Shown here: in pieces, positions 3,713 to 63,751 of the stretch
Numbering within the stretch: the first letter of the stretch is position 1
Layout: the number at the start of each line of letters is the position of its first letter
DNA from: Thermoanaerobaculia bacterium
GTDB taxonomy: Bacteria; Acidobacteriota; Thermoanaerobaculia; UBA5066
Length of the DNA: 64,000 bases
Assembly: GCA_963719225.1 (NCBI GenBank)
Contig: CAVRAY010000001.1
Span: 1,440,001-1,504,000, forward strand
Direction of reading: 5' to 3'
Notes under the pieces: model-generated
The model's input: the letters and a program-made list of their open reading frames with translations, nothing else
What the model was told of the DNA's origin: nothing
Database searches by the model: none
Position numbers and translations under genes: made by a program

Positions 3713-3813
3713 AAGATTTCTTAGAAGGTAAGAGGAGAGAGGGCCCGGCAACCGCTGGGCCTTTTCGTTTCAGGGCACCGTTGGCCGATGCCCTATTCAC
3801 CCTCTAAGAAATT
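3713..3813. repeat. Inverted pair of dispersed TTTCTTAGAAGG-type motif (intergenic)
   Basis: AAGATTTCTTAGAAGGTAAGAGG at 3713 (+) and TGCCCTATTCACCCTCTAAGAAATT at 3789-3813 (-). Confidence 0.7.
3740..3770 (+). terminator. Probable intrinsic terminator
   Basis: GGCCCGGC...GCTGGGCC stem followed by TTTTCGTTT. Confidence 0.55.
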
Positions 3814-3877
3814 CGAATCCCCGGGCGCGCCGTGAGGCGCGCTCCGAACAAAAAAACCTTATCCTCTTTTCGTTCTC

Positions 3878-4384
3878 ATGCAGCCTGCGCAGAAGAAGTT
3901 CCTGATCCGGTTCGTGCTCGCCCTCGGCGTGTTCTACCTTCTCGTGGCGATCCAGCCCGTGAACGACCGCATCGTGGTGCCGTTCACGGAGCTCCTCGTG
4001 CGTATTTCGACGGTCCTTCTCGCCGCGGTCGGGGAGAAGACGCAGTCCTTCGGCACGGTCATCCAGTCGCCCGCGTTCGCGGTGGACGTGAAGAACGGGT
4101 GCAACGGGATCGAGGCGGCTCTTCTTCTCGTGGCCGCGATGCTCGCGTTTCCCGCGCCCGCGAAGCAGCGCGTTCTCGGCATCGCCGCGGGGCTCGCGGT
4201 GATCCAGGGCGTGAACCTCTTCCGCATCGTCTCGCTCTTCTGGCTCGGCGTGCACCATCGCGACGTGTTCGAGCTGTTTCACGCGGCGGTCTGGCAGACG
4301 GCCCTGATCCTGCTCGCCGTCGGGATCTTCCTCGCCTGGAGCCGGCGCGCGGCCGGCGGAGGCCGAGCTGAAGCCCGCGGCTAG
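3878..4384 (+). CDS. xrtH: Exosortase H
   Basis: Short multi-TM protein with catalytic triad motifs NGCNGIEA, NLFRI, LFHAAVWQ. Confidence 0.85.
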   Translation: MQPAQKKFLIRFVLALGVFYLLVAIQPVNDRIVVPFTELLVRISTVLLAAVGEKTQSFGTVIQSPAFAVDVKNGCNGIEAALLLVAAMLAFPAPAKQRVLGIAAGLAVIQGVNLFRIVSLFWLGVHHRDVFELFHAAVWQTALILLAVGIFLAWSRRAAGGGRAEARG

Positions 4385-4982
4385 GGCTCTCGCCGGCTTC
4401 GCCCTGGGTCTCGCGCTCTGGTGGGCTCTGACGCCAGCCTACAACCGCCTCCTCGCGGGCTTCGCGGAAAGCCTGATCCGCGCCGGCGAACGCCCGCACG
4501 CGACGCACCTCTACGCCGAGAACCGGCGCATCGTGATCGACCGCGCCGATTTCCCGTCCACGTCCGACAGGCCGTCGCTGCCGGCCGACGATCTCACGTT
4601 CGACGTCATCCTCTTCCTGGCGCTCGCGGCGACGACGCCGGGCCTCTTCCGCGACCGCGCGGTCCGCGGGGCCGTCGTGAGCCTTCTTCTGCTCTTCGTT
4701 CTCCACGTTTTCGCGCTCGTCGCGGGCGTCGAGAGCTTTTACGCGACGCGCCTCGGCGCGTGGAGCGAGGCGCACTACGGAGCTTTCGCGCGGAACCTCT
4801 GGGCCACCGCCACGCACTTCTGGCGATTCGTGGGCTGCTACGCGGCGGCGTTCCTGTTGTGGTGGTTCCTGGTGAGGTCCAGCCCTGTTACGGCTTCACG
4901 GGACCCTTCAGCTCGGACTTCTTCGCCAGCTGCATCTGCTGGTGGGCCATCGCGAGCTTCTCGGCGTCGGGGAAGAGGGTGA
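4368..4982 (+). CDS. Exosortase-associated membrane protein
   Basis: Frame of the 4533 ORF stays open back to CTG at 4368 preceded by GGAGG; several TM helices; overlaps xrtH end; start uncertain. Confidence 0.6.
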   Translation: MKPAARALAGFALGLALWWALTPAYNRLLAGFAESLIRAGERPHATHLYAENRRIVIDRADFPSTSDRPSLPADDLTFDVILFLALAATTPGLFRDRAVRGAVVSLLLLFVLHVFALVAGVESFYATRLGAWSEAHYGAFARNLWATATHFWRFVGCYAAAFLLWWFLVRSSPVTASRDPSARTSSPAASAGGPSRASRRRGRG

Positions 4983-16937: not shown

Positions 16938-19900
16938 ATGAAGATCGCTCCCCGGCGCCTCTCGTTCTTCGGCCTCGGCGCAGCGGCTCTCGCGGCCGCC
17001 GGCGCGATCGCTCTGGCCCGTCCGTTCTCCGAAGGCGCCCGCGCGACCGGGGGCGCCGCCACGTGGAAGGAAGTCGAGCGCCTCGTCTCGGAGCAGAAGC
17101 TCGAGGAGGCCTCGCAGCGCGTCGCGAAGATCCGCGAGGCGGCCCGGGCGGCCGGCGACGAGGAGAACGAGGCGAAGGCTCTCGTCCGCGAGGTCCAGCT
17201 CCGCACCGCGCTGCACGGGTACGAGACGTCGGTCCGCTTTCTCAAGGACCAGCCGTGGCCGAAAGGCCTCCTGCCGCGAACGGCGCTCCGCCTCTTCTAC
17301 GCCCAGTCCCTCGTGACGTACTCCCGCGCCTATGCGTGGGAGATCGGCCAGCGCGAAAAGGTCGCGTCGACCGGCGCGGTCGACCTCAAGGCGTGGACGC
17401 GCGAGGAAATCGTGTCCGAGGCCGTCCGCACCTACGTGGAGGTCTTCCGCGATCGGGAGAGCCTCGGAAACGCCAAGGTCGCCGCGCTCGACGAATACCT
17501 CGTGCCGAACAGCTATCCGAAGGGAATTCGCGACACGCTGCGGGATGCCACGGCGTACCTCTTCGTCGCCCTCCTTTCCGATTCGACTTTCTGGCGGCCC
17601 GAGCAATCGAACGGAGTCTTCGCGCTCGATCGCGAGTCGCTCGTCGCAGGCGATCCGTCCGCCTCGCGGCTCGTGGCGCTCGAGAACCCCGCGGTCCATC
17701 CGCTCGTCAAGCTCGGCGCCGTCCTCGACGACCTCGAGTCGTGGCACGCGGGACGCGGCGAGCGCGAGGCCGCGCTCGAGGCACGGCTCGAGCGCGTCCG
17801 GCGCCTACACACGGCGCTGACGGACGCCTCCGACCGCTCGCTCATCCGGCGCGATCTCGGCCGGCGGCTCGTCGACGTCGCGGACGTGCCCTGGTGGGCG
17901 ATGGGAAAGGCCGAGCTCGCGGAGCTCGTGAAGGCCGAGGACAAGCCGGGCAACTTCGTCAAGGCGCGCTCCCTCGCTCTCGAGGGAGCCAAGAAATATC
18001 CGCGGTCCACGGGAGGCGAGCGCTGCCGCGCGATCGTGGGCGAGATCGAGCAGCCGGACTACCGGCTCCTCGCAATGGCGGCGGACGGCCCGGGCCGGCG
18101 CTCGATCGAGGTGACCCACCGCAACCTCGCCGCCCTCCATTTCCGCGCGTACGCCGTCGACCTCGAAGACCGGCTCGGCCGCGCGCGGGATTACAACCTC
18201 CTGCCCCAGGGCAAGGAGCTGGACGCCCTCGTCGCGAAAGCGTCCCCTTCGGCGGCGTTCCACGCCGATCTGCCCGCCACGCCGGATTTCAGGCTGCACC
18301 GCACGTTCGTGACGCCGCCGGCGCTCTCGCGCGGGTTCTACGTGATCGTGGCGTCTCCCAGGGCCGACTTCTCGACCGGGCAGAACCCGCTGCGCGCGGT
18401 CGGCACGCTCGTGACGGATCTCGTCCTGGACATCCGCCAGACGGACGACGGCGGCGTCGAGGCGCGCGCCGTCTCCGGGACGACGGGCCGACCCGCGGGG
18501 GGCGCTGCCGTCGCGCTCTGGCGCTACGACTGGCAATCCGGGCATACGCGCGTCGCGACGGCCCACACCTCCGCGGAAGGCCTCGCGGTCTTCAGCCCGG
18601 CCGCCGACCGGAACGGCAAATCGCACTTCCTCTTCGCGCGGCGCGGCGACGACCTCGCGCTCGACCCGACCTTCCTCGGCTTCTGGAGCCGGTCGGCGCC
18701 CACGGAGACGTCCTCGGCCCTCGTCTACACGGACCGCAGCATCTACCGGCCGCTCCAGAAGGTGCTCTGGAAGGCGGTCGTCTTCAGCGGCCGAGCCGAC
18801 CTCGCGCGATGGCGCGTCGTGCCGCAGACGCCGGTGACGCTGACGCTCGTAGACGCGAACGGGCAGGCCGTGGAGTCCAAGACCATCTCGTCGAACGCGT
18901 ACGGCTCGGCGGCGGGGGAGTTCACGATTCCCGCCGGGCGCGCGCTCGGCGCCTGGAGCCTGCGGTGCGCGACCGGAGGCGCGGCGGCCTCGATCCGCGT
19001 GGAGGAGTACAAGCGGCCGACGTTCGAGACGACGCTCGACGTCCCGAAGGACCCGCTGCGCCTCAACCGCCCGGCGACGTTCCGCGGCGGATCGAAATAC
19101 TACTTCGGGCTGCCCGTCACGAACGGAAGCGTGGCCTGGCGCGTGACGCGCGAGGCCGAATATCCCTGGTGGTGGTGGGGCTGGTGGGGAGGCTCGCGTC
19201 CGGCAGGCGCCGAAACCGTCGCGACCGGCAAGGCGTCGCTCGCCCAGGACGGGACCTTCGCCGTCACGTTCACGCCGAAAGCGGACGAGCGCGCCGGCAA
19301 GGACGTGACGTATCGCTATCGCCTCTCGGCGGACGTGACCGACGAGGGCGGCGAGACGCGCTCGGCCGATCGCTCGTTCCGCCTCGGGTTCGTGAGCGTG
19401 AGAGCAAGAGTAGAGAGAGAGAAGAATTTTTTCTTGGAAGGGAAGAGGGGCGAGGGCACGATCGTCAGGACCGATCTGGACGGAGCGCCTCGTCCGGGCA
19501 AGGGAAGCTGGCGGCTGCTCCGCCTCGTGTCGCCCGAGAAGACCCTGCTCCCGGCCGAATTCCCTTCCAAGAAATCCGAAATCGCCGATGGGCCTGGAGA
19601 GGCTGGCGCCGCCCAGAACGCAGCGGACCCTGCGAGAGGGAGCAAAGAATTTCTGACTCCCGGCGATCTGCTCCGCCCGCGCTGGTCGACCGAGTATTCC
19701 GTCGACCAGTGGCTGCGCGCGTGGAAGGACGGAGCCCAGGCGGCGTCCGGTGCCTTGACGCACGACGCGAAGGGCGAGGCGAAGCTCGAGCTGCCGGGCC
19801 TGCCCGCGGGCGCCTACCGGCTGCGCTACGCGACGGTCGACGACTTCGGTGCGCCGTACGAGATGGCCCAGGACTTTCTCGTCGCGGGCTCGAGCGCGGC

Positions 19901-26118: not shown

Positions 26119-26985
26119 GCGGCAGCCTCCCGGCGAGCCCGGCCCGCGGCGAGCGAGGTCCGCGCTCGGGAGAGCTCGTCGAGGAGTTCTTCGAAAGGGG
26201 GATAGGCTCCGTCCCGCTCGAGAATCACAGTCAAGGGATGTGGCGCCAGCTCTCCGAGTCGTTCGAGGAGAGAGAAGACGGCCTCCGGCACGGGGTGCAC
26301 GTGGTCGTCGAGGAGACGGTGCTCGCCGGGCTTACCCGGAATCCCGACGCTCCGGCCCCCCGCAAGATGAACGGCCTTGACCCTCCGCATCGGGATACTT
26401 CTAAGAAAATCTTCTTCTCTTTCTTCCTCTTCTCCGAATCCAAGAGTTCCTCGCGTTCGCATGGAGGTTGTGAAGGTCGAGCAGGAGGTCAGTGTCTGCA
26501 GCTTCGAGCACGTCCGCGACGAACGCGGCCTCGTCGCGGTCGCTCCCGGGCGGGTCGATCAGCGTCGCGACGTTCTCGAGAAGCGGCGCGCTCCCCACGA
26601 CCGCGCGAGCCCGCGCGACGTTACGGACGGTCCCCGCGATCGTGGCCGCACACCGGGGCGGTGCGGCGAGATGGCCGATCTCGATCCCGCCGCCGCGGAC
26701 GAAAGCGAGGTGCTCCGACCAGAACACGGGCCGCGCGATCTCCGCGACGCGCGCGAAGGCGGCGAGTCGCCTTTCGTCCACACCAGCGGACGACGCGAGC
26801 CCGAGCGAGACCCCGTGGAGGACCACGGGGATCTGTGCGGACAGCGTCCGAAGGGCGCGCTGCTCGCGCGCGGGTCGCTCCGTCCAGTCCTCCGCGATCA
26901 CTTCGACGACGTCGAGCCGGTCCGCCGCGGCGAGGATGCGGTCCGCGAGCGGAGGCCGCCAGCCGATTCCGAAGAGGTCCTTCAC
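26115..26985 (-). CDS. DUF692 multinuclear non-heme iron oxidase (MNIO, MbnB/TglH/ChrH family); one frameshift near 26445
   Basis: GIGWR, HGVSLGL, WSEHLAF, LLEN, LLDLHNL then HLAGG, DDH, ILERD in the next frame. Confidence 0.9.
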
Positions 26986-26986
26986 C

Positions 26987-33542: not shown

Positions 33543-33578
33543 CTTCTAAGAATTTCCTCTTCTTCTTCCCTCTTCCCC
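33448..33578. repeat. Inverted pair of dispersed motif across a gene junction
   Basis: GAGTTTCTTAGAAAGGGTGAGAGGGGC (+) and revcomp GAAATTCTTAGAAGGTGAATG (-). Confidence 0.7.
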
Positions 33579-35393: not shown

Positions 35394-36800
35394 ATGAAGA
35401 GAATCCTCCGGATCCTGCCCATTGCCCTCGGCCTGGCCGCCGCGTCCGCCTTCGCGCAGGAGGGGCCGCCCAGGGAAAGTCGTTCCTTTCGCGAGCCGGA
35501 CCTCGTGGAGATCGTGCGGCTCGATCCGACCATTCGGCTCGACGTCCGGTACGCGACTTCGAAGAACCTTCTCGGCCGTCCCGTGTATGCCGAGGCGCGT
35601 GCGTTCCTCCAGCGCCCGGCCGCCGAGGCGCTCGTGCGCGTGAACCGCGCGCTGAAGGAGAAGGGATACGGGCTCATGATCTTCGACGGCTACCGGCCCT
35701 GGGCGGTCACGAAGCTGTTCTGGGACGCGACGCCGGCCGACAAGAAGATCTTCGTCGCCGACCCGAAGAAGGGCTCGCGGCACAACAGGGGCTGCGCCGT
35801 CGACCTCTCGCTTTACGAGCTCGCAACGGGGCGTGAGGCCGACATGGGCGGCGCTTACGACGAGATGTCGGCGCGCTCGTACCCGACCTGGGACAAGGGG
35901 ACCAGAGAAGTCCTCGCCCGCCGGGCCCTCCTCGCCGCCGCGATGGAAAAAGAGGGTTTCTTCGAATATGTGGCCGAGTGGTGGCACTTCGACTACAAGG
36001 ACTGGCTCGAGTATCCGATTCTGGACGTTCCGTTCACGGCTCTCGGAGCACCGAGGGCCGCGTTCAGCGAAGTCCTGAACCTGCGTCAGGCGCACGTCGT
36101 CGATCTCACGCACTCCTTCGACGAGAAGACGCTCTACTGGCCGACCTCGCCTTCCGCCTTCGAGCTGAAGACGCTCGCGAAGGGAACGACCCCCGGCGGC
36201 TGGTTTTATTCGTCGAATTCGTTTTGCACGCCCGAGCACGGCGGAACGCATCTCGACGCGCCCGTACACTTCTCGGCGGCGGGGGAGAGCGCCGACAAGG
36301 TGCCGGTCCGGAAGCTCGTCGCTCCGGCGGTCGTTCTCGACGTGACGGCCAAGGCGGCGCAGGACCCGGATTACCGGCTCACGGCCGCGGACGTGAAGGA
36401 CTGGGAGGCGGCGCACGGTGCGATTCCGCGCGGCGCGATCGTCCTGCTCAGGACCGGGTGGTCGGCGCGCTGGCCGGACCGCAAGCGCTATTTCGGCGAC
36501 GACACGCCGAACGACGCGTCACATCTCCACTTTCCCTCCTACGGGAAGGAGGCGGCGGAATTCCTCGTTCGGGAGCGCGCGGTCGGAGCGCTCGGCGTCG
36601 ACACGGCCTCCATCGATTACGGTCCCTCGCAGGACTTCCCCGTCCACCGCATCGCGGCGGCCGCCCAGGTCCCCGGGCTCGAAAACCTCACCGGCCTCGG
36701 GGAGCTTCCCGAGACCGGTGCGTGGCTCGTCGCGTTGCCGATGAAGATCGCCGGAGGCTCAGGCGGCCCGCTGAGGGTCGTGGCGCTCGTCGGAGACTGA
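35394..36800 (+). CDS. Fusion: M15D D-Ala-D-Ala dipeptidase (VanX/DdpX) + cyclase/kynurenine formamidase domain
   Basis: Signal peptide; FDGYRP, SRHNRGCAVDL, EWWHFD; then EHGGTHLDAP, LLRTGW, DTASID, GLENL, GSGGP. Confidence 0.85.
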   Translation: MKRILRILPIALGLAAASAFAQEGPPRESRSFREPDLVEIVRLDPTIRLDVRYATSKNLLGRPVYAEARAFLQRPAAEALVRVNRALKEKGYGLMIFDGYRPWAVTKLFWDATPADKKIFVADPKKGSRHNRGCAVDLSLYELATGREADMGGAYDEMSARSYPTWDKGTREVLARRALLAAAMEKEGFFEYVAEWWHFDYKDWLEYPILDVPFTALGAPRAAFSEVLNLRQAHVVDLTHSFDEKTLYWPTSPSAFELKTLAKGTTPGGWFYSSNSFCTPEHGGTHLDAPVHFSAAGESADKVPVRKLVAPAVVLDVTAKAAQDPDYRLTAADVKDWEAAHGAIPRGAIVLLRTGWSARWPDRKRYFGDDTPNDASHLHFPSYGKEAAEFLVRERAVGALGVDTASIDYGPSQDFPVHRIAAAAQVPGLENLTGLGELPETGAWLVALPMKIAGGSGGPLRVVALVGD

Positions 36801-37501: not shown

Positions 37502-42852
<5,351 letters not shown>

Positions 42853-43231: not shown

Positions 43232-43327
43232 ACCTCTTTCGCCCCCAAGAGACCCGTTCGTGAATTTCTTTCTTGTTCGGAAGAACGAAGAGAAGACGAT
43301 TTTTCTGAGAAGGGAAGAGGGTTTGGT

Positions 43328-45327
43328 ATGTCCTCGGTGGCGAGCTCGAATCGGATTGACCCGGCGGTTGGAGAAGGCGGCGGAAATATCCGTCTGACGC
43401 TGCCCGATGGTTCCGTGCGCGAAGTCCCTTCGGGCACGACGGGCCGTGCCGTGGCCGAGTCGATCGGGCCCCGCCTCGCCAAGGACGCGCTGGCCGTGAA
43501 GCTCGCCGGCGAGGTTCTCGACCTTTCCCGCCCGCTCCGGACGTCCGGCTCCTTCGAGGTCGTCACGCCGAAGCACCCGGACGCGCTCGAGCTGTACCGC
43601 CACTCCACGGCGCACCTCTGCGCGAACGCCGTCAAGCGCCTCTTCCCGGGCGTGAAGATCGGCATCGGCCCGGCCATCGAGAACGGCTTCTATTACGACT
43701 TCGACCCGGGCCGGCCGTTCACGCCCGAAGACCTCGAGAAGATCGAGGCCGAGATGAAGAGGATCGTCGCCGAGGACAACGCCGTCGTCCGCAAGGAGAT
43801 GTCGAAGGCCGAGGCCGTGAAGCTCTTCGAGGCCCAGAACGATCCGCTCAAGGTCGAGATCGTCGACGGGCATTCCCGAGGGCAGCCTCTCCTGCTACGA
43901 GCAGAAGGACTTCATCGACCTCTGCCGCGGACCCGCACGTGCCGTCCACGGGAAAGCTCGGCGTCTTCAAGCTCACGCACGCGGCGGGCGCGTACTGGAA
44001 GGGCGACGAACGGAACCCGATGCTCCAGCGCATCTACGGAGCCGTCTTTCTCACGCAGAAGGAGCTGGACGCGCACCTCGCGAGGCTCGAGGCTGCGCGA
44101 GCGCGCGACCACCGAAAGCTCGGCAAGGAGCTCGCGCTCTTCGTGTTCCACCCGTGGGCCCCGGCGTCGCCGTTCTTCCTCCCGCGGGGCGCGACGGTCT
44201 ACAACCTCCTGATCGACTGGATCCGCGCCCTGTACGTCAAGTACGGGTATCAGGAGATCCTCACGCCCCAGATCTTCGACGAGGAGCTGTTCACGACCTC
44301 GGGGCACACGGGCAACTACCGCGAGAACATGTTCTTCGTCCAGGTCGACGAGCGCGAGTTCGGCGTGAAGCCGATGAACTGCCCGGGGCACTGCCTCGTG
44401 TTCGGATCTCAGGCGTTCAGCTACCGGGACCTGCCCGTGCGGTACGCCGATTTCGCGCGCCTCCACCGGTACGAGAAGTCGGGCGTCACACAGGGCCTCA
44501 CGCGCGTCCGCTCCTTTTCGCAGGACGACGCTCACATCTTCGCGGCTCCCGAGAGCATCGATCGCGAAGTGGCGTCGTTCCTGACGTTCCTCGACGAGGT
44601 CTACGGGACGTTCGCATTCCAGGACGTCGCGATCTCCCTCGGGCTGAGGCCCGAGAAGCGCGTCGGAGCCGACGCCGTCTGGGATCGGGCCGAAAAGGTG
44701 CTCGAGGCGGCCCTGAAGGCGACCGGCCGCCCCTTCGTCGTCTCGCCGGGCGACGGAGCCTTCTACGGTCCCAAAATCGACTTCCGCGTGAACGACGCGA
44801 TCGGGCGGCCCTGGCAGCTCGGCACGTTCCAGTGCGACTTCAACCTCCCCGAGCTCTTCGATCTGCACTACACGGCCGAGGACGGGACGAAGCAGCGCCC
44901 CGTCCTCCTGCACCGCGCCATCCTCGGCTCGCTCGAGCGCTTCCTCGGAATCCTCATCGAGCACACGGGTGGCGACTTTCCGTTCTGGCTCGCGCCGGAA
45001 CAGGTGCGCGTCGTGCCGGTCTCGGAGAAGTTCAATGAATACGGGGAGAAGATTCTTAGAAGGGTAAGAGAGGCCGGGCTGCGCTCAACGAGCGACCTCA
45101 GGAGCGAAAAGCTGGGCGCGAAGATCCGCCACGGGGAGCTCGAGAAAGTTCCCGCGCTCCTCATCGTCGGCGAGAAGGAGCAGGCGGCCGGGACGGTCTC
45201 CCTGCGCGTCCGACACGGCGGGGAGTTCAAGGATCAGAATATCGAAGAGCTTCTAAGAACGATGAAGAGCGCGGTTGCGAACCGCTCGCTCACATGGCAC
45301 CAAACGTCAACCGCTCGCGAACAGTAA
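43328..45327 (+). CDS. thrS: Threonine--tRNA ligase (two +1 homopolymer frameshifts near 43870 and 43933)
   Basis: TGS domain, RHSTAH, DLCRGPH after correction, RDHRKLG, KPMNCP, GAFYGPK, HRAILGSLERF. Confidence 0.95.
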
Positions 45328-46561: not shown

Positions 46562-47659
46562 GTGGTGGACCTTCTTCAGGCGATCGAAGAAAGACGAAGA
46601 GATTTCTTCGAAGAGTTGAAGACCGCCGAGGGAAAGGTCGCGGCCGGGGTGCTCCTCCCGGCGGATGTGCGCGCTCTGCACGTGCGTTGGCTCGGACAGA
46701 AGCAGGGCCTGGTGACTGAGCTCCTGGCGGGCCTTCGGACCCTTTCGAAGGAAAACAAGGCTCCCGCCGGCGCCGCCATCAACAAGCTCAAGAAGGACGT
46801 GGAGACTGCGCTCTCCACCCTCGAAGAATCTTCGGTGCTCTTCGAACGCCAGCAGAGGCAGAGGGCGCTCGCCGTCGACGTGACGCTCCCCCCGCGCGCT
46901 CCGCGCCTCGGGCGGCTGCATCCGCTTACGGTCGTGAGGCGGCGGATCGAAGCCGCCTTCGCGTCGTTGGGCTACGAGGTCGCGCACGGCCCGGACGTCG
47001 AGACCGACTGGCTGAACTTCGGGGCGCTGAATTTCCCGCCCGACCATCCTGCGCGCGACGCGGTGGACACGTTCTTCGTGAAAGGCGGCGGGGAGGGCGA
47101 CGACCGTCTGCTCCTGCGCACGCACACGTCGCCGGTCCAGATCCGGACGATGCTCGCTCAAAAGCCCCCGATCCGGATCGTGATCCCCGGCCGCGTCTAC
47201 CGGAAGGACGACATCGATCCGCGCCACTCGCCGGTCTTCCATCAGATGGAGGGGCTCACGGTGGACGAGGGCATCACGTTCGCCGACCTGAAAGGCACGC
47301 TTGCGGCGTTCGCCCGGCTGCTCTTCACGCCCGAGACGAAGATCCGGTTCGGACCGACGTTCTTCCCGTTCGTCGAGCCGGGAGTGGACGTCGCGGTTTC
47401 GTGCGTCTTCTGCAAGGGCACGGGCAGCGCCCAGGGGGGCGCATGCCGACCGTGCTCGGGCACCGGCTGGATCGAGATCCTGGGCGCGGGGATGGTGCAT
47501 CCCGCGGTGCTGAGGAACGGAGGCATCGACCCCGAGAAGTATTCGGGATTCGCGTTCGGCATGGGAATCGACCGTGTCGCGTTCCTCGTCTACGGCGTGC
47601 CGGACCTGCGGCTCTTCTTCGAGAACGACGTGCGCTTCCTCGATCGCGTGTGGAGCTGA
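46562..47659 (+). CDS. pheS: Phenylalanine--tRNA ligase alpha subunit
   Basis: HPARD, LRTHTSPVQ, FHQMEG, FPFVEP, GFAFGMG; CxxC..CxxC insert. Confidence 0.96.
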   Translation: MVDLLQAIEERRRDFFEELKTAEGKVAAGVLLPADVRALHVRWLGQKQGLVTELLAGLRTLSKENKAPAGAAINKLKKDVETALSTLEESSVLFERQQRQRALAVDVTLPPRAPRLGRLHPLTVVRRRIEAAFASLGYEVAHGPDVETDWLNFGALNFPPDHPARDAVDTFFVKGGGEGDDRLLLRTHTSPVQIRTMLAQKPPIRIVIPGRVYRKDDIDPRHSPVFHQMEGLTVDEGITFADLKGTLAAFARLLFTPETKIRFGPTFFPFVEPGVDVAVSCVFCKGTGSAQGGACRPCSGTGWIEILGAGMVHPAVLRNGGIDPEKYSGFAFGMGIDRVAFLVYGVPDLRLFFENDVRFLDRVWS

Positions 47660-47666: not shown

Positions 47667-49808
47667 ATGAAGTTCTCCCACGAGTGGATCGCGTCGTATC
47701 TGCCCGGCCCCGCGCCGGACCCGAAGGGTCTCGGCGACCGCCTGACGGCGGTGGGTTTCATCGTCGAGGGAGTCGAAGGCTCGGGCGCGGACACCGTTTA
47801 CGACGTCGAGATCACGGCGAACCGGCCCGACGGGATGAGCCACCGGGGCCTCGCGCGCGAAGCGGCCCTCGCGCTGTCCCGGACCTTCGCAGAGCCCGCC
47901 CGTCCCCCGCTGCGCGAGAGCGATACGACGGCCGACATGCGGGCCCGCGTCTACGTCGAGGAGCCGGAGCTCTGCTCGCGGTATTCCGCGCGCGTCCTAG
48001 AGGGGATCCGCGTGGCCGCGCCTGGCGGCGCCGTGGCGGCACGGCTTCGCGCGATCGGCGCCGGAACGATCTCAGCCCCGGTGGACGCCACGAACCACGT
48101 CCTCTGGGACATCGGCCAGCCGCTCCACGCTTTCGACCTCGACTCGCTCGCGAAAGGGGTCGACGGATTCCCGACGATCATCGTTCGGCGCGCCCGGGCG
48201 GGAGAGACGCTCGTGACGCTCGACGGCGTCACGCGCGCGCTGTCGCCGCAGCACCTCGTGATCGCGGACGCCGAGAAGCCCGTCGCCCTCGCGGGCGTCA
48301 TGGGCGGACTCGAGACGGCGATCTCGGATCGGACGACGCGCGTCCTCCTGGAGGGAGCGCATTTCGATCCGCGCGCGGTGCGCAGGACGTCACGCTCTCT
48401 CGGCATGCACACGGACGCGTCGCACCGGTTCGAGCGGGGAGCCGATCCCGAAGCGACGCGCGACGGGCTCGACCGCGCCGCCCGCCTGATCCTGGAGTCG
48501 TGCGGCGGCACTCTGTGTCGGGGGACGATCGACGTCCGCGAACGGCGGTCGAGCCCCCACGCGCCCCGGGTGCTCACGCTCCGCCTCGCGCGGCTCACGG
48601 CATTCCTCGGGATGGACATCGCGGCCGGGCGCTGCGTGGAGATCCTCGCCGCGCTCGGGTTCTCTCCGGTCCACGTCGGCGACACCGTGCGCGTCACGGT
48701 ACCCTCCTGGCGTGTCGACATCGCCGGTGAGGAGGACCTCGTCGAGGAGGTCATCCGCTGTGAGGGCTACGAGCGGCTGCCCGAGACGCTGCCGAGTTCG
48801 TACGCGCCGGCGCGTCCGCCCGAGGCGGCGCTCGTCGAGGACCGCGCGCGCGACCTCCTCGCGGGCTTCGGGCTCCTCGAGTGCGCGACGTACTCGTTCG
48901 TCTCGGAAGCAGAGAATGCCCCGTTCGTCTCCGCCGCGCCGGGCGCGCCGGTCCTCGTCGAGAACGCACTCGGCGAGCCCTTCACGACGATGCGCGCGAC
49001 CCCCGTGATCGGGCTCCTGCAAAGTGCCCGTCACAACGTGCGGCGCGGCCAGAAGGACCTCGCTCTCTTCGAGGTAGGGACGGCGTTCGGGTGGAATCAA
49101 GAGAAGATTTCTGCTGAAGAGAAGACGGGGGAAGGAAGAGTCATCGAAAGAACGAAAGTCGGGATCCTCCTCGCCGGCGCAAGAAACCGCCATTGGTCGC
49201 AGGGGGAGACGGCGAATTCGGATTTCTTCGATGGGGCGGGAATTGCAGAGGCGCTCATGAAAGGCCTCGGCTTGGGGGGCGCTTCGTCCCCTATTACCTT
49301 CAAAGAAAATCTTCCGGTCTCTTCGTACCTGGCCCCTGGGCGCGCTGCCCGCATTCTCTGCGCGGGCCGCGAAGCCGGATGGGTTGGCGTCCTCGAGCCT
49401 TCGCTCGCCGCCTCCTGGGATCTGACCGATCCCGTCGTGGCCGATCTCGACCTCGATGTCCTTGCGGCCGCGCTGCCCCCTCCCGAGACGTCCGTCGAGC
49501 CCCCGCCCCGTTTTCCCGGCAGCGAAGTGGATCTCACCGTGACACATCCGCTTTCGACTTCGTGGAGAACGCTCGAATCGGCCGTGCGCGCGGGCGCGCC
49601 AGTGGAGCTCGTGGCAGTCGAGGCGAAAGGACGCTACCAGGGTCCCGGCGTCAAGGGTGGTTTCGTGAAGACGACGTTGACCCTGCGGTTCGGCTCGCCG
49701 CTCGGCACTCTCGCGCGTGAGGACGTGAACGCGTGGCGCGACGCCGCGGCCCGGCGCCTTCTGGCGCTGAAAGATGCCGCGGTGGACGGCGTACCGGCGT
49801 CAAATTGA
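47667..49808 (+). CDS. pheT: Phenylalanine--tRNA ligase beta subunit (lacking B2 OB domain)
   Basis: ITANRPD, QPLHAFD, ALAGVMGG, RFERG, PSWRVDI..EEDLVEEV. Confidence 0.93.
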   Translation: MKFSHEWIASYLPGPAPDPKGLGDRLTAVGFIVEGVEGSGADTVYDVEITANRPDGMSHRGLAREAALALSRTFAEPARPPLRESDTTADMRARVYVEEPELCSRYSARVLEGIRVAAPGGAVAARLRAIGAGTISAPVDATNHVLWDIGQPLHAFDLDSLAKGVDGFPTIIVRRARAGETLVTLDGVTRALSPQHLVIADAEKPVALAGVMGGLETAISDRTTRVLLEGAHFDPRAVRRTSRSLGMHTDASHRFERGADPEATRDGLDRAARLILESCGGTLCRGTIDVRERRSSPHAPRVLTLRLARLTAFLGMDIAAGRCVEILAALGFSPVHVGDTVRVTVPSWRVDIAGEEDLVEEVIRCEGYERLPETLPSSYAPARPPEAALVEDRARDLLAGFGLLECATYSFVSEAENAPFVSAAPGAPVLVENALGEPFTTMRATPVIGLLQSARHNVRRGQKDLALFEVGTAFGWNQEKISAEEKTGEGRVIERTKVGILLAGARNRHWSQGETANSDFFDGAGIAEALMKGLGLGGASSPITFKENLPVSSYLAPGRAARILCAGREAGWVGVLEPSLAASWDLTDPVVADLDLDVLAAALPPPETSVEPPPRFPGSEVDLTVTHPLSTSWRTLESAVRAGAPVELVAVEAKGRYQGPGVKGGFVKTTLTLRFGSPLGTLAREDVNAWRDAAARRLLALKDAAVDGVPASN

Positions 49809-50785: not shown

Positions 50786-52387
50786 GTGAATTCCATTCAA
50801 GTCATCGCCGTCGAGGCCGCGCTCGCGGTCTTCGCCGTGGGTGTCCTCATCTGGGCCCTGAGGACCCGGGGGGCGGCCTCGATCGCGAAGGCCGAAGCCG
50901 AGCTCGAGGCTCGCAAGAAGCTCGAGGAGGCGAAGCTCGCCGCCGAGTCCGCCGTCCGGCGCGCCGAGGCCACCGCCCAGAAGACCGAGCTCGATGCGAA
51001 GGAGCGGGCGCTCAAGGCACGCGAGGCCGCGGAGCAGGAGGCCGCGAAAAGGCGCGCCGAGCTCCTGGACCAGGAAAAGCGCCTTCTTCAGAAGGAAGAG
51101 ACCCTCGACAAAAAGATCGTCGTCGCCGAGAAACGCGAGATGGAGTCCGAGAATCGCGCCCAGAACCTCACGAAGCGCGAGAAGCGGGTCGAGGAGACCG
51201 AGGCCGAGGCCCAGAAAAAGGCCGAGGAGATCGTCCAGGAGCAGCGCGAAAAGCTCGAGAGGATCGCCGGTCTCACGGCCGAGCAGGCCAAGCGTGACCT
51301 GATCCGCGAGCTCGAGAACGAGGCGCGCCTCGAGGCGACCGGCCTCGTGCGCCGGATCGAGGAAGACGCCGTCGAGAGCGCGAACTGGAAGGCGAAACGG
51401 CTCCTCTCGATGACGATCCAGCGCATGGCGTCCGAGCACGTCGTCGAGACGACCGTGTCGGTCCTCGACCTCCCGTCCGACGACATGAAAGGGCGGATCA
51501 TCGGCCGCGAAGGCCGCAACATCCGGGCCGTCGAGGCCGCGACGGGCGTCGACATCATCATCGACGACACGCCGGAAGCGATCCTTCTCTCCTCGTTCGA
51601 CCCGATCCGCCGCGAAGTCGCGCGGCGCGCGCTCGAGCGCCTCATCCAGGACGGGCGCATTCATCCGGCGCGGATCGAAGAGGTCGTCGAGAAGGTCCGC
51701 GAGGAGCTGTGGCTGGACGTCAAGACCACGGGTGAAGCCGCGGCGTTCGAGTTCGGAATCGCCGACCTCCATCCGGAGGTCGTGAAGCTGCTCGGGCGGC
51801 TGAAGTACCGCACGAGCTACGGCCAGAGCGTCCTCCAGCACAGCAAGGAGGTCGGATGGGCCGCGTGCCACCTCGCGAGCGAGCTGGGGGCCGACGTGAC
51901 GGTCGCCAAGCGCGCGGGACTCCTCCACGACATCGGCAAGGCGATCGACCGCGAGCAGGAAGGAACCCACCTCGAGCTCGGCCGGCAGATTCTCAAGAAA
52001 TACGGCGAGACGGAGTCCGTCATCCACGGCATGGAATGCCACCACGGCGACTACGAGCCCCGCACGATCGAGGCGGTCCTCGTGAACGCGGCCGACGCGA
52101 TCTCGGCCGCGCGGCCGGGAGCGCGCCGCGAGATCCTGGAGACCTACGTCAAGCGCCTCGAGAAGCTCGAGAAGATGACGGAAGGCATGAAGGGCGTCGA
52201 GCGCACCTTCGCGATCCAGGCGGGCCGCGAGCTGCGCGTGATCGTGGACGCGAAGAAGGTCACGGACGACGAGTGCCTCTGGATGTCGAAGGACATCGCC
52301 AAGCGCGTCGAGGCGGAACTGCAATATCCAGGGCAGATAAAGATCACCGTCATCCGAGAGACAAGGGCCGTTGATTTTGCAAAATAA
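50786..52387 (+). CDS. rny: Ribonuclease Y
   Basis: N-terminal TM, coiled coil, KH (MKGRIIGREGRNI), HD (LLHDIGK), AIQAGRE. Confidence 0.96.
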   Translation: MNSIQVIAVEAALAVFAVGVLIWALRTRGAASIAKAEAELEARKKLEEAKLAAESAVRRAEATAQKTELDAKERALKAREAAEQEAAKRRAELLDQEKRLLQKEETLDKKIVVAEKREMESENRAQNLTKREKRVEETEAEAQKKAEEIVQEQREKLERIAGLTAEQAKRDLIRELENEARLEATGLVRRIEEDAVESANWKAKRLLSMTIQRMASEHVVETTVSVLDLPSDDMKGRIIGREGRNIRAVEAATGVDIIIDDTPEAILLSSFDPIRREVARRALERLIQDGRIHPARIEEVVEKVREELWLDVKTTGEAAAFEFGIADLHPEVVKLLGRLKYRTSYGQSVLQHSKEVGWAACHLASELGADVTVAKRAGLLHDIGKAIDREQEGTHLELGRQILKKYGETESVIHGMECHHGDYEPRTIEAVLVNAADAISAARPGARREILETYVKRLEKLEKMTEGMKGVERTFAIQAGRELRVIVDAKKVTDDECLWMSKDIAKRVEAELQYPGQIKITVIRETRAVDFAK

Positions 52388-52447
52388 GGAAGAAGATTTT
52401 CTTAGAAGGAAAGAGGGGCATCGTGCCCTATTCACCTTGAAAGAAAG
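52388..52447. repeat. Inverted pair of dispersed motif (intergenic hairpin)
   Basis: GAAGATTTTCTTAGAAGGAAAGAGGGGCA-TCG-TGCCCTATTCACCTTGAAAGAAA. Confidence 0.72.
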
Positions 52448-52462
52448 TTTGCAGACCGGTTC

Positions 52463-53254
52463 ATGAAGCTCTTGTTCATCGGAGACGTGGTGGGCAAGCC
52501 CGGCCGCAAGGCGCTTTCTCTCCTCGAGAAAGTCATCGGGCGAGAGCACATCGATTTCACGATCGTGAACATCGAGAACGCGGCCGGGGGATTCGGCGTG
52601 ACGGCCGAGCTCTTCGCCGAGATGACGAAGCTCCCGATCGACGTGTTCACGTCCGGCAACCACATCTGGGACAAGAAGGAATTCGTGCCGCTCCTCTCGG
52701 ATCTCGAGAACCTGCTGCGTCCCGCGAACTACCCGCCGGGCAACCCGGGCCGCGGCTGGGCCATCCAGGACACGCCGTCGGGAATTCCCGTGGGCGTCCT
52801 GAACCTGCAGGGGCAGGTTTTCATGGCGAACACGGACTCGCCCTTTCGGGTGGGCGATCAGGCGCTCGCCGAGATGAAGACGAAGCGCCCGGATCTGAAG
52901 GTCGTGGTCGTCGACATCCACGCGGAGGCGACGTCCGAGAAGCAGGCCGTCGGGTGGTGGTTCGACGGCCGGGCATCGCTCGTCATCGGCACGCACACGC
53001 ACGTGCCGACCGCGGACGCGCGGATCCTGCCGAAGGGAACGGCCTATCAGGGAGACGCGGGCATGACGGGGGCGTACGAGGGAATCATCGGCTTCGACCC
53101 GAAAGCCATTCTCGAAAAGTTTCTGTATCAGACGCCGCGTTCGATGGAAACCGCCACGCGCGACGTCCGGATGTGCGGCGCGATCGTGGACGTGGACGAG
53201 GCGACGGGGAAGGCCCGCGGGATCACGCCGATCCAGGAGAGGTTCGCCAGCTAG
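52463..53254 (+). CDS. ymdB: TIGR00282/YmdB metallophosphoesterase
   Basis: FIGDVVG, ENAAGG, SGNH, DIHAEATSEK, GTHTH. Confidence 0.92.
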   Translation: MKLLFIGDVVGKPGRKALSLLEKVIGREHIDFTIVNIENAAGGFGVTAELFAEMTKLPIDVFTSGNHIWDKKEFVPLLSDLENLLRPANYPPGNPGRGWAIQDTPSGIPVGVLNLQGQVFMANTDSPFRVGDQALAEMKTKRPDLKVVVVDIHAEATSEKQAVGWWFDGRASLVIGTHTHVPTADARILPKGTAYQGDAGMTGAYEGIIGFDPKAILEKFLYQTPRSMETATRDVRMCGAIVDVDEATGKARGITPIQERFAS

Positions 53255-56093: not shown

Positions 56094-57527
56094 ATGTCGA
56101 GTCGCCCCCCCGGCCGTGGGTTCGTCGTTCGCCGCGTGACCATGCGCCGCGTCGCCGAGACGCAGATGTCCTTCGGAGACACGGGCCCGGACGCGACGGC
56201 GATGACCGTGTCGGAACTCGTGCGGCGAATGAACGGGATTCTCAAAGGGGGGATTCCGGACGTTTGGGTGAAGGGTGAGATCGCCAACTTGCAGCGCCCG
56301 GGCTCGGGCCACCTCTATTTTTCTTTGAAGGATGAGCGGGCGGCGATGCCGTGTCTGATGTGGCGGAGCACCGTCGTCCGTCTTCCCTTCGAAGCAGAAG
56401 AAGGACTTCTCGTCCTGGCGCGAGGCTACCCGGACGTGTACGCATCGTCCGGGAAGCTCTCTCTCGTCGTTTCCGAGCTGCAGCCCTCGGGCATCGGCGC
56501 GCTCCAGCTCGCCTACGAGCAGCTGAAAGCTCGCCTTGCCGCGGAGGGGCTCTTCCAGGCCGCCCGGAAGCGGCCGCTGCCGCTCCTGCCGCGGCGCATC
56601 GGCATCGTGACGTCGCGTCACGCGGCCGCTCTGCGCGACATCCTCAAGGTCCTGGGGGCGCGCTTTCCGAACGCGCACGTGACGATCTACCCGGCCTCGG
56701 TCCAGGGTCCGACGGCGGCATGGGAAATCGTGCGCGCGCTCAACGCCTTCACCCGAGTTCCTGGATCCGCGGACGTCCTCATCGTCGCGCGCGGCGGAGG
56801 CTCGAAGGAGGACCTCGCGGCGTTCAACGACGAGGCGGTCGTCCGCGCCGTCGCGGCCTCGCGCGTGCCCGTGATCTCCGCCGTCGGCCACGAAGTCGAC
56901 GTGACGCTCACCGATCTCGCGGCGGACCTCCGCGCGGCGACGCCCTCCCAGGCGGCGGAGCTCGTCGTGGAGCGTCTCGACCGCTTCGAGGAGCGCCTCG
57001 AGCGCGGGGAGAGGGATTTGAGGATTTCCTTGAAGGGGAAAATGGACAGGGCCGCGCACCGCGTCGCCGGGCTCGCATCGGCGCCTGCCCTGACGCAGTT
57101 TCGAGCGACCGTTCGCCAGGCCGGGGTCGATTCGCGCGCCACGGCGCGCGCTCTTTTCTCTTCCTTTCAGAGAATCCCCTCTTCTCTTCTCTTACGTGTC
57201 TCGCGCTACGAAGAGAGCGTGCGGGGCTGGGTCGACCGCGCGGCACTCCCGTTCCTCCTCGACCGGGTCGCGTCCGAGAGACGCGCCGCCGCCGACCGCA
57301 TCGCCGCGCGCATCGCGGCCGCGAACGAGAAGCTGAGCGTTGCGGTCGGGCGCCTCGAGGCATTGAGCCCGCTGCGGGTTCTCGCGCGCGGGTATGCGAT
57401 CGTGACGAAGGAAGGCCAGACGGTTCCCGTGACCGACGCCGGGAGCCTTGCGGCCGGCGATTCCGTGCAGGTGCGACTCGCCCGCGGGCGCGCCTCCGCC
57501 CGCGTCCTTTCTACGGAGACCACATGA
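56094..57527 (+). CDS. xseA: Exodeoxyribonuclease VII large subunit
   Basis: WVKGEI, SGHLYFSLKD, ARGGGS.EDL, SAVGHE, RAATPS, SPLRVLARGY. Confidence 0.95.
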   Translation: MSSRPPGRGFVVRRVTMRRVAETQMSFGDTGPDATAMTVSELVRRMNGILKGGIPDVWVKGEIANLQRPGSGHLYFSLKDERAAMPCLMWRSTVVRLPFEAEEGLLVLARGYPDVYASSGKLSLVVSELQPSGIGALQLAYEQLKARLAAEGLFQAARKRPLPLLPRRIGIVTSRHAAALRDILKVLGARFPNAHVTIYPASVQGPTAAWEIVRALNAFTRVPGSADVLIVARGGGSKEDLAAFNDEAVVRAVAASRVPVISAVGHEVDVTLTDLAADLRAATPSQAAELVVERLDRFEERLERGERDLRISLKGKMDRAAHRVAGLASAPALTQFRATVRQAGVDSRATARALFSSFQRIPSSLLLRVSRYEESVRGWVDRAALPFLLDRVASERRAAADRIAARIAAANEKLSVAVGRLEALSPLRVLARGYAIVTKEGQTVPVTDAGSLAAGDSVQVRLARGRASARVLSTETT

Positions 57528-61234: not shown

Positions 61235-61624
61235 GTGGCAACGAGCTCCGAGAACCGCCGCTTCGGATGGACTGTGGGAGGCGTCTTCGCCGTCCTGGGC
61301 GGCCTCCTTCTGTGGCGTCATCGGAACGCCGCGGCCGTCGTCGCTTTCGCGATCGGCGGGCCCCTCCTCCTTCTGGCCGCGATCTTCCCGGCGGGCCTCG
61401 CCCGGCCCCATCGCGCATGGCTCGCGTTCGCGCGCGTTCTCGCCCGCGTCAACTCCACGATCTTCCTGTTCCTCACGTTCTTTCTGATCCTCACGCCGCT
61501 CGGGTTCGTCCTGCGCCTTTTCGGGCGGGACGAGCTGAAGCGCCGCGCACCCGCGCCCGCCTCGATGTGGTCGCCTTATCCGGAGAGGAACGGCGACCCC
61601 AGCCATTACGAGACGATCTGGTGA
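61235..61624 (+). CDS. SxtJ family membrane protein
   Basis: RRFG..., W......LARVNS..., LTPLG, RDEL. Confidence 0.8.
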   Translation: MATSSENRRFGWTVGGVFAVLGGLLLWRHRNAAAVVAFAIGGPLLLLAAIFPAGLARPHRAWLAFARVLARVNSTIFLFLTFFLILTPLGFVLRLFGRDELKRRAPAPASMWSPYPERNGDPSHYETIW

Positions 61625-61782
61625 TGAGCAAGAGCGAGGTCCTTTCGCAGCTGTGGCAATTCCTCAAGTACCGCAAGAAGTACTGGCTCATGCCCATCGT
61701 GTTCCTCCTCGTCCTCGTCGGCCTTCTCCTCGTCCTCGCCGAGAAGAGCGTCATCGCTCCCTTCATCTACACGCTGTTCTAG
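61624..61782 (+). CDS. DUF5989 (SxtK-like) small membrane protein
   Basis: LWQFLKYRKKYWLMP...APFIYTLF. Confidence 0.85.
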   Translation: MSKSEVLSQLWQFLKYRKKYWLMPIVFLLVLVGLLLVLAEKSVIAPFIYTLF

Positions 61783-61786
61783 AGCC

Positions 61787-63751
61787 GTGACGGCGATCCT
61801 CGGCCTCTCGGCCTACTACCACGACGCGGCGGCGTGTCTTCTCGTCGACGGGACGATCGTCGCCGCGGCCCAGGAAGAGCGCTTCACGCGCAAGAAGCAC
61901 GACGCGGAATTTCCCGCTCACGCGGCGCGCTATTGCCTCGAGGCGGGCGGGCTCACCGCCGACCGCCTCGACCACGTCACGTTCTACGACAAGCCGCTCG
62001 TGAAATTCGAGCGCCTCTTCGAGACGTATCTCGACTACGCGCCGCGCGGATTCGCGTCCTTCCGCAAGGCGATGCCTCTCTGGATCACCGACAGGCTCTG
62101 GATGTCCGAGCGCATCGGGAAGGAGCTGGGCTTTTCGGGCCGGATCCTCTTCTCCGATCATCACGAGTCGCACGCGGCGTCGGCCTTCTACCCGTCGCCG
62201 TACGAGGAGGCCGCCGTGCTCACGATGGACGGCGTCGGGGAATGGGCGACGTCCTCCCTCGGAGTCGGGAGCGGCAACCGGCTCGATATGCAGTCGGAGC
62301 TCAAGTTTCCCCATTCCATCGGCCTTCTCTATTCCGCGTTCACGTACTTCTGCGGTTTCAAGGTGAACAGCGGCGAGTACAAGCTCATGGGCCTCGCGCC
62401 CTACGGCGAGCCGAAGTACACCGGGGTGATCCGCGAGAAGCTCGTCCATGTCTGCGAGGACGGCTCGATCCGCCTCGACATGGATTACTTCGATTTTGCC
62501 GACCGCCTGACGATGACGGGCAGAGGATTCGAGAGGCTCTTCGGCGGCCCGGCGCGCGCGCCCGAGTCGAAGCTCACGCAGCGCGAGATGGACCTGGCAC
62601 GCTCGATCCAGGACGTCACGGAGGAGATCGTCCTGAAGATGGCCCGGCACGCGAAAAAGACGACGGGCGCACGGTATCTCTGCATGGCGGGCGGCGTCGC
62701 TCTGAATTGCGTGGCGAACGGCAAGCTCCTCGAGGCGGGGATCTTCGACGACATCTGGATCCAGCCCGCCGCGGGCGATGCGGGCGGGGCCGTGGGCGCG
62801 GCGCTCTCGATCTGGCACCGCCACCTCGGCAAGTCGCGTGAGAGCGCGGAGACGCGGGGGACATGGAGGCTGGGAAATGAGAAAGAGAAGAAAAGAGAAG
62901 ATTCTTTGAATGAGAATGCAGCAGGTGCGGACGGCGGCGCGCCGCGGGCGACCGATGCGCCCGCCTCAGCGGCGTCCGTTGCCGATCTGCCGCCGTACGA
63001 AGACGGCATGTCGGGCGCGTTCCTCGGCCCCTCTTACCCTTCCAAGCAAATACAGACCTGGCTCGAGTCGAAACATTACCCGTACCGAACTGTTGATCCC
63101 GCCGCGCTCCCAGGCGAAGTTGCCGACCTCCTCGCTTCCGGCAAGATCGTGGGCCTCCTCCAGGGACGCATGGAGTTCGGGCCGCGGGCGCTCGGCGGGC
63201 GCAGCATCCTCGGCGACCCGCGTTCGCCGGCGATGCAGTCGGTCATGAACCTCAAGATCAAGTTCCGCGAGTCGTTCCGGCCGTTCGCGCCGTCCGTCCT
63301 CCGCGAGGACGTGTCGCGCTGGTTCGCGTTTTCGGGAGACTCGCCTTACATGCTCCTCTGCGCCGACGTCGTGGCGGAGAAGCGCCGCGCGATGACCGCC
63401 GAGGAGAACGCGCTCTGGGGAATCGAGAAGCTCAACGTGCCGCGCTCGTCGATCCCCGCGGTCACGCACGTGGATTATTCCGCGCGCCTTCAGACCGTCC
63501 GCCGGGAGACGAACCCCGTCTATCACGCGATCCTTTCCGCATTCCAGGAGCGCACGGGCTGTCCCGTCGTCGTGAACACGTCGTTCAACGTGCGCGGCGA
63601 GCCGATCGTCTGCACACCCGAGGACGCGTACCGCTGCTTCATGCGGACGGCGATGGACGTCCTCGTCCTCGAGAACCACGTCCTCCTGCGCGACGATCAG
63701 CCGCCCGCCGCCGACGGAGAGGACTGGAAGAAGACGTTCACGCTCGACTGA
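61787..63751 (+). CDS. NodU/CmcH family O-carbamoyltransferase
   Basis: YHDAAA, QEERFTRKKH, HHESH, GEYKLMGLAPYG, GGVALNC, EFGPRALG, NTSFN. Confidence 0.93.
   Translation: MTAILGLSAYYHDAAACLLVDGTIVAAAQEERFTRKKHDAEFPAHAARYCLEAGGLTADRLDHVTFYDKPLVKFERLFETYLDYAPRGFASFRKAMPLWITDRLWMSERIGKELGFSGRILFSDHHESHAASAFYPSPYEEAAVLTMDGVGEWATSSLGVGSGNRLDMQSELKFPHSIGLLYSAFTYFCGFKVNSGEYKLMGLAPYGEPKYTGVIREKLVHVCEDGSIRLDMDYFDFADRLTMTGRGFERLFGGPARAPESKLTQREMDLARSIQDVTEEIVLKMARHAKKTTGARYLCMAGGVALNCVANGKLLEAGIFDDIWIQPAAGDAGGAVGAALSIWHRHLGKSRESAETRGTWRLGNEKEKKREDSLNENAAGADGGAPRATDAPASAASVADLPPYEDGMSGAFLGPSYPSKQIQTWLESKHYPYRTVDPAALPGEVADLLASGKIVGLLQGRMEFGPRALGGRSILGDPRSPAMQSVMNLKIKFRESFRPFAPSVLREDVSRWFAFSGDSPYMLLCADVVAEKRRAMTAEENALWGIEKLNVPRSSIPAVTHVDYSARLQTVRRETNPVYHAILSAFQERTGCPVVVNTSFNVRGEPIVCTPEDAYRCFMRTAMDVLVLENHVLLRDDQPPAADGEDWKKTFTLD

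Follow-up and report, generated by a model that had tools for sequence, protein, structure and literature searches.

In a stretch of 64,000 nucleotides from a Thermoanaerobaculia bacterium of lineage UBA5066 (assembly GCA_963719225.1, contig CAVRAY010000001.1, positions 1,440,001 to 1,504,000), hereafter the window, a dispersed motif recurs in facing pairs, a plus-strand copy followed by a minus-strand copy. The motif is real, selected and clade-restricted, and it lies outside every family tested. We consider, with a probability of about 0.5, that the pairs are sites for a two-fold symmetric, sequence-specific and chromosome-organising protein acting on double-stranded DNA, which would hold both arms and bend or wrap the DNA between them.

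Facing sites between genes and over codons

A weight matrix seeded with 20 copies from the window was iterated over genome G000 (4.75 Mb, 2 contigs, 68% GC). In the resulting consensus, about 35-38 bp long, two purine runs flank (A/T)TTTCTTnGAAgGg, the second of them being wAArrG; the strongly fixed core of each arm is 12 bp set within the purine runs. G000 contains 937 sites of at least 14 bits, versus 32 expected from an order-5 Markov simulation. In the window, the 13-mer with at most 2 mismatches is matched 24 times against 3.4 expected, and none of 100 shuffles got to 24. All 25 copies listed in the initial annotation were found again, each with a matrix match of at least 12 bits at or beside its place. 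The copy near 45250, which had been assigned to the minus strand, is indeed a site; its plus strand scores better, and the orientation of this pair is ambiguous because the motif core is nearly palindromic. Two strong single sites, at 35963 and 49114, were absent from that list. Masking the motif revealed no second inverted-pair word, only insertion-sequence words and a poly-T artefact.

The convergent orientation described for the window is clearly non-random at the genome scale: a distance below 400 bp separates 299 of 326 plus-minus neighbours and 21 of 326 minus-plus neighbours. Facing pairs account for 693 of the 937 sites. Of the strong sites, 151 lack a partner of 12 bits; among these, a weaker facing partner is present in 26% and a weaker diverging one in 5%. 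Extra copies on the same strand lie 24-49 bp outside the pair for 5.7% of 280 arms, compared with 0% inside and 0.4% at random. Some paralogous families also carry sites. Ser/Thr kinase-like paralogues (for example G000 C1 1,634,953; 1,739,142; 2,301,348-2,319,659) have a pair over the N-lobe with a fixed 91-bp spacing, in the sister genus too. A multi-copy insertion sequence with nine copies in G000 (one at C1 2,033,861-2,035,039) has two weak facing sites 348 bp apart, one of them near its end, which may reflect chance or adaptation to the host.

Using gene calls made in this analysis (4,080 genes), 278 sites are intergenic and 633 of 937 lie wholly in coding DNA, in agreement with the initial description of a motif found both between and inside genes. 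The coding sites are divided between 317 sense and 316 antisense and occupy all six frames; per base, intergenic DNA is about 3-fold enriched. The enrichment stands against eight synonymous shuffles that hold protein and codon counts constant within each gene, the control that had been proposed for the window: 149-172 coding sites and 11-20 pairs remain in the shuffles, versus 625 and 181 observed. Rare codons are forced at the sites, TTA making up 11.5% of Leu codons there versus 0.13% elsewhere and AGA 54% of Arg codons versus 2.5%. In pheS, both sites fall at identical codons in 22 of 24 relatives (one relative has a single site and one has neither) and in 0 of 5 loci from other families; third positions at these sites are 58% A/T versus 10% elsewhere in 23 genus loci. 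The indifference to strand and frame, the forced rare codons and the A/T third positions in pheS all point to a motif that acts at the DNA level. Within 150 bp of pairs, genome-wide, coding DNA also has more A/T-ending codons than the rest of the same genes (GAT 32% versus 17%). These codons, beside or between the arms, suggest that mutation is raised, or codon selection relaxed, in the vicinity of the sites.

For six pairs in five genes of the window, alignments were made to orthologues of three to five genera that lack the motif. The net indel is 0 in the threonyl-tRNA synthetase (ThrRS), 0 in both xseA pairs, 0-3 residues in PheS, +7-8 in PheT and +31-32 in the carbamoyltransferase. Four of the six intragenic pairs thus show little or no net indel, and in the remaining two the gain spans one arm at most: the carbamoyltransferase insertion contains one arm, and the other replaces conserved codons. 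The DNA between the arms of intragenic pairs is native coding sequence. Nor do the arms look like copies of each other, since identical 20-mers number 34, as in a second-order positional model (34); identical 24-base words are in modest excess (9 versus 1.3), with one 30-mer and no 35-mer. Judging from these alignments, the motif overwrites codons and is not inserted as a unit.

Spacing, chromosomal gradient and range among relatives

The distance between facing arms is constrained. Of 302 unique pairs, 185 lie wholly within one gene at 60-220 bp, and a spacing below 60 bp occurs in just 6 of 285, which sets a lower limit near 60 bp. With paralogues collapsed, a two-mode fit (about 77 and 142 bp) beats a single mode (Bayesian information criterion 216 versus 248). 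In G000, 29 of 101 pairs in the 61-91 bp range fall at 72-76 bp (p 0.001) and 22 of 78 in the 116-157 bp range fall at 134-139 bp (p 0.001), both peak windows having been picked after the data were seen. In other genomes, 116 exact-consensus pairs were reduced to 76 flank clusters, among which some orthologues may remain, and 40 of the 76 are at 72-76 bp out of 31 possible spacings (p 3e-13). The peaks at 74 and 136 bp correspond to about 7 and 13 helical turns.

The DNA inside the pairs is GC-rich, with few purine runs and more Ala codons. Pairs of the 72-76 bp class have, in addition, a GC step 21 bp inward of each core (41% in G000 and 43% in other genomes; the other classes have 14-28%), and their midpoint is flanked on each side, at about 6 bp, by an A/T peak. 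This pattern was found separately in 29 pairs of G000 and in 30 pairs of other genomes. When an inner matrix was trained on the other genomes, the 72-76 bp pairs of G000 scored above shuffles (p 6e-6), and those at 62-70, 78-92 and 131-141 bp did not.

The sites are also graded along the chromosome. A dif-like site is located at C1 2,037,575, close to the GC-skew turn, and dnaA and parS are on C2 at 325-334 kb, as placed in G000 with words that we take to be those of dif and parS. Site density is 34 per 100 kb at dif and 7-10 at the far side. The mapping against origin and terminus, suggested at the outset, therefore yielded a drop of about 3- to 4-fold from dif toward the origin on both arms. 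C2 is partly chimeric and likely joins two related populations: of its 763 genes, 102 have a second copy, about 77% identical and in mirror order (C2 8-225 kb and 608-800 kb). For this reason the gradient rests on C1, where 31 versus 12 sites per 100 kb are found near versus far from dif (Spearman -0.77, both arms), and on a second genome, G028, where contig C4 gives 3.3 versus 1.6 (p 0.003) from the 84 of 86 exact 13-mers that are on that contig. It is present in coding DNA, in intergenic DNA and in all five codon-typicality classes. No replichore skew was observed for paired sites (321 leading, 309 lagging) or single sites (107 and 115); a separate word, GGGGGAG, does show such skew.

A second parAB operon lies directly beside dif (G000 C1 2,037,575-2,039,524), and several facing pairs flank dif in the genus. 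All 22 genomes examined across the order have the ParB2 protein, and nearly all have a dif-like word near its gene. In G019, an origin-type ParB match on C2 is just about 740 kb from dif, which suggests rearrangement or misassembly.

The initial annotation had proposed to look for the motif in relatives, and it is present throughout the genus and in 7 of 8 genomes of the sister genus; none of the three outcomes that the annotation had named as refuting its observation was obtained. The exact 12-mer has 76-351 copies in 28 of 28 other genus genomes, versus 0-6 in 32 genomes outside the genus. All 29 genus genomes have the facing-pair pattern (12-110 copies), as do the same 7 of 8 sister genomes (1-18 copies); it is seen in 0 of 26 from the other eight genera of the family, and the reversed pair controls of this comparison are 0. 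Across 251 genomes of the class, the 10-mer is high mainly in the genus, and four outliers carry 0, 0, 0 and 1 pair. In 30 of 64 parts of a species collection, 117 loci were found, of which 116 are titled Acidobacteriota or Thermoanaerobaculia and one Patescibacteria. The exact pair has 0 matches in viral contigs. The unpublished genomes G037, G042, G189, G224 and G227 are among the motif-free background, and no claim hinges on them. In contigs of 4 of 20 public runs, at 85% likeness, the 15 joints listed out of 94 include no strand-change joint; the runs contain at most one third of the words, and absence is not demonstrable from them.

Compared with aligned G000 sites, the sister-genus genome G065 keeps 7 of 18 and G061 keeps 1 of 13, with relics at several. 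These retained sites and relics indicate a signal that is older than the split of the two genera and that has decayed in part of the sister genus. No replacement motif was found in 200 kb of G061. In another family, genome G212 contains numerous TTCTTAGAAG words close to the ends of contigs, together with a single hairpin-like element (C131 5,849-5,940) that these words delimit; this is probably an unrelated repeat resembling repetitive extragenic palindromic (REP) sequences.

What the paired sites may be

A symmetric protein complex on duplex DNA best explains the indifference to strand and frame, the facing copies, the lower spacing limit, the snug spacing with its inner pattern and the gradient centred on dif. 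In this scenario, a protein would read the motif, and one complex would bridge both arms, which being face to face would run parallel once the duplex doubles back. The 74-bp spacing would be the snug fit, and 136 bp would add about six helical turns. The result could be a local folding of late-replicating DNA, for compaction or segregation, as with matS but with hundreds of small loop anchors. The common ancestor of the two genera would have acquired the reader. The first proposal for the window was a genome-wide cis-acting system, such as sites for a nucleoid-organising or looping protein. Its cis-acting part is upheld, and its organising part gains the gradient and the preferred spacings; looping would be a further step, and the spacings lack 10.5-bp phasing.

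Several observations weigh against such a complex. Overall phasing at 10.5 bp was not detected (p 0.44; p 0.996), and a rigid short loop should impose it. Most pairs sit off both spacing peaks, the peak windows in G000 being post hoc. The inner matrix also lifts the 142-260 bp class over shuffles (p 1e-4, smaller effect), so part of the inner signal is generic. The strengths and the outer copies of the two arms do not co-vary, and no mirror-matched outer copies were seen. The gradient is gradual, with no bounded terminus domain and with sites near the origin as well, and it is weaker in G003. Ribosomal-protein genes, which are highly expressed and for which a tight loop should be costly, also contain sites.

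Finally, all seven protein candidates for the reader, which were examined singly, failed. ParB2 beside dif has the same recognition helix outside the genus, its 22 genomes including 13 outsiders. One HU, at C1 2.9987 Mb, is also in the motif-free G033 and G035, and another, at C1 2.9959 Mb, is in motif-free genera and was not found in the motif-bearing G065. The histone fold PF00808 was detected in 0 of 5 genomes, a search that divergent bacterial histones could escape. In GyrA and ParC, the C-terminal domains display ordinary divergence, with no change confined to motif-bearing genomes. A Myb-like/TPR protein is in 57 of 61 family genomes, and an 86-residue orphan beside the densest cluster is in 4 of 63. 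No gene tied to the motif was found in a 20-kb stretch near dif, and no candidate emerged from the genes of 17 dense clusters, from those enclosed by long-range facing sites or from a by-eye list of 108 small basic proteins. As to HU proteins, one paralogue (G061 C1 2,499,508-2,499,792) evolves fast within the sister genus (54% identity in G061), was not found in 5 of its 8 genomes and is conserved in the rest of the family.

At rather longer odds, the organising protein could make these pairs the bacterial equivalent of convergent loop anchors: a sequence-specific protein, newly acquired, would fold several hundred micro-loops or nucleosome-sized wraps (about 74 and 136 bp), graded toward the terminus, and selection for its sites would have rewritten essential proteins clade-wide, with both rise and decay visible. 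In the prevailing view, bacterial chromosomes are folded mostly by proteins of loose preference and by a few dozen dedicated sites. About 900 oriented and spaced words over essential genes would be, if this is true, a sequence-programmed architecture unseen in model bacteria. The clade would then be a natural gradation between 110 canonical pairs and none, and the motif a gauge of how far a DNA-level signal can reshape a proteome. Keyword searches of the open-licence literature, which did not use the motif letters as a query and did not cover supplements, returned no description of the motif.

Of the alternatives, the one that survives best, itself unlikely, is a new DNA-uptake or recombination-bias signal whose copies build up by molecular drive, the facing pairs marking a duplex U-turn threaded into the uptake pore. 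The uptake signal sequence (USS) and the DNA uptake sequence (DUS) are likewise lineage-specific, present in hundreds of copies and written over coding DNA in all frames, with changes of amino acids (PMC2817400). DprA is present, pattern matches alone point to ComM, ComF and pilus ATPase-like genes, and a prophage-like stretch falls within a 46-kb site-free gap. However, one DUS suffices in Neisseria, where inverted pairs are described as terminators at most 21 nt apart (PMC2397512), and here most unique pairs are within one gene at far greater distances. Drive offers no evident reason for a dif-centred gradient, and genes with atypical codons carry a site load similar to that of typical ones (12.6 versus 12-16 per 100 kb).

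A shade less probable is that the pairs are places where a type II topoisomerase, or its adaptor, binds strongly, with each arm held by the C-terminal wrapping domain or a partner and the gate segment in the centre, which could aid relaxation or decatenation where forks converge. This would account for the symmetry, the lower spacing limit and the patterned centre. The 74-bp element covers about 120 bp and has its arms 22-60 bp from the midpoint, dimensions that come near those of the symmetric gyrase motif of 130 bp with its 36-bp centre and two 47-bp arms (PMC6379681). That motif, however, is degenerate and read by shape, whereas the one described here has its strongly fixed core, and by eye the inner pattern is unlike the published gate-segment preferences (PMC10117906). 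Gyrase and Topo IV of E. coli are depleted toward the terminus, not enriched (PMC6379681, PMC10117906), and the ordinary divergence of the GyrA and ParC C-terminal domains also argues against such sites.

Ranking below this, a hairpin signal on RNA or single-stranded DNA is improbable. The arms would form an imperfect stem read in transcription, decay or replication, and they do pair in the lowest-energy structure for 3 of 4 window pairs folded (z -2.0 to -2.7), but any inverted repeat would fold arm to arm. True partners are hardly better than permuted ones (-22.4 versus -21.9 +/- 0.3 kcal/mol; arm identity 22.0/49 versus 21.7, p 0.045). Mismatches of G-U and A-C type are equal on the sense strand (603 versus 587, 182 pairs), shuffled sequences fold as well as the inner DNA (z 0.07, 216 pairs), and a stem requires neither the 60-bp minimum nor the 74-bp peak. 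The motif is thus probably not a selected hairpin.

The least probable alternative, already largely refuted, is a decayed or domesticated miniature mobile element with the arms as its ends, of the type of REP doublets forming hairpins (REPIN), miniature inverted-repeat transposable elements (MITE) or Rickettsia palindromic elements (RPE): the inverted doublets, the intergenic enrichment, a longer spacer in pair-bearing genomes near dif, the carbamoyltransferase arm inside an insertion and a faint oriented inner word recurring in some 74-bp pairs would suit it, but most sites are intragenic, their likeness to one another does not exceed that of independent draws, native codons are for the most part overwritten around inner DNA that is itself native, and no autonomous element lies between long-range facing sites. 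A degenerate REP- or MITE-like origin, the other option first offered for the window, is therefore not supported. The REP-associated tyrosine transposase (RAYT) that it called for, the Y1 transposase PF01797, was not found in any of the four genus genomes searched (G000, G003, G017 and G006; 97, 97, 94 and 81% complete); the same family was found in the motif-free G035 and in 6 of 14 controls.

Features of the window and comparison with known systems

The sites of the window are collected below, with centre-to-centre spacings for the 11 unambiguous pairs.

Table. Motif sites in the window (window positions; strand in brackets).
Feature	Span	Centres	Spacing	Context
Facing pair	3700..3828	3723(+)/3805(-)	82 bp	intergenic; terminator-like hairpin between arms
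Facing pair	19413..19591	19436(+)/19568(-)	132 bp	within alpha-2-macroglobulin-family gene
Facing pair	26169..26456	26192(+)/26402(-)	210 bp	weak outer tandem copy 26433(-)
Facing pair	30511..30703	30570(+)/30680(-)	110 bp	weak outer copies 30534, 30543(+)
Facing pair	33436..33570	33459(+)/33547(-)	88 bp	spans junction of two minus-strand genes
Single site	35940..35978 (+)	35963		23 bits
Single site	43285..43323 (+)	43308		downstream of two tRNA-Val genes; no partner of at least 10 bits
Two sites	45035..45279	45058(+) and ~45256 (strand ambiguous)		overwrite two helices of the ThrRS anticodon-binding domain, no indel
Facing pair	46586..46846	46609(+)/46823(-)	214 bp	pheS N-terminal domain
Facing pair	49091..49325	49229(+)/49302(-)	73 bp, canonical class	in pheT, 7-8 residue local gain; extra plus site 49114
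Close facing pair	52381..52463	52404(+)/52440(-)	36 bp	between rny and YmdB-like gene
Facing pair	56303..56414	56326(+)/56391(-)	65 bp	in xseA, no indel
Facing pair	57008..57192	57031(+)/57169(-)	138 bp	in xseA, no net indel
Facing pair	62884..63066	62907(+)/63043(-)	136 bp	carbamoyltransferase gene; plus arm in 31-32 residue insertion, minus arm overwrites conserved codons

The only Rfam matches in the window are two tRNAs and a 6S RNA (RF00013) at 50511-50690, upstream of rny. A direct repeat of at least 300 nt at 99% identity (39087-39386 and 41709-42008, 2,622 bp apart) stems from a tandem duplication of a kinase-like gene, the second copy being shorter. A minus-strand gene at 496-1800 has helix-turn-helix domains and resembles an insertion-sequence transposase; outside the window, about 8 kb upstream of it, there is a phage-type integrase.

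Rickettsia palindromic elements are repeats inside working protein genes that insert as a unit and add a peptide; the arms described here, in contrast, mostly replace existing codons. The translocase-orienting words KOPS (FtsK-orienting polar sequences) and SRS (SpoIIIE recognition sequences) have a strand skew that flips at dif, and this motif has none. It also differs from a parS/ParB-type centromere of ParB2, since ParB2 does not track the motif. The closest likeness in the way coding DNA is overwritten, in all frames and at a cost in codons and residues, is with the hundreds of lineage-specific USS of Pasteurellaceae and DUS of Neisseriaceae; the motif differs from both by its facing pairs, mostly 60-220 bp apart within genes, its preferred spacings and its terminus gradient. 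With REPINs and their RAYT it shares inverted doublets, a similar spacer length, dispersal and lineage specificity. REPINs, however, are extragenic, form hairpins and are copied by a linked RAYT (PMC3116915), whereas these pairs are mostly intragenic and independently evolved, with no Y1 transposase found in the genus. The gyrase binding motif resembles a pair in that both have two-fold symmetry, a footprint of 120-130 bp and a short centre flanked by two arms; gyrase recognises shape by way of a GC content that is periodic, with a 10.75-bp period in the arms (PMC6379681), while the core sequence of the pairs is fixed, their spacing varies and their gradient along the chromosome runs the other way. 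The chromosomal hairpins (CHINs) made by H-NS and StpA are like the geometry put forward here, in which the duplex would turn back on itself and have its arms bridged. They form on AT-rich silent foreign genes (PMC12460168), and the pairs are defined words in GC-rich core genes. Finally, the matS/MatP system of E. coli also has sequence-defined sites weighted to the terminus, with 23 copies of a 13-bp matS within 800 kb (PMC3330122) and a MatP that forms dimers of dimers (PMC10117906). Unlike matS, the motif is asymmetric, is present in about 900 copies graded across the whole chromosome, and is arranged in short-range pairs.

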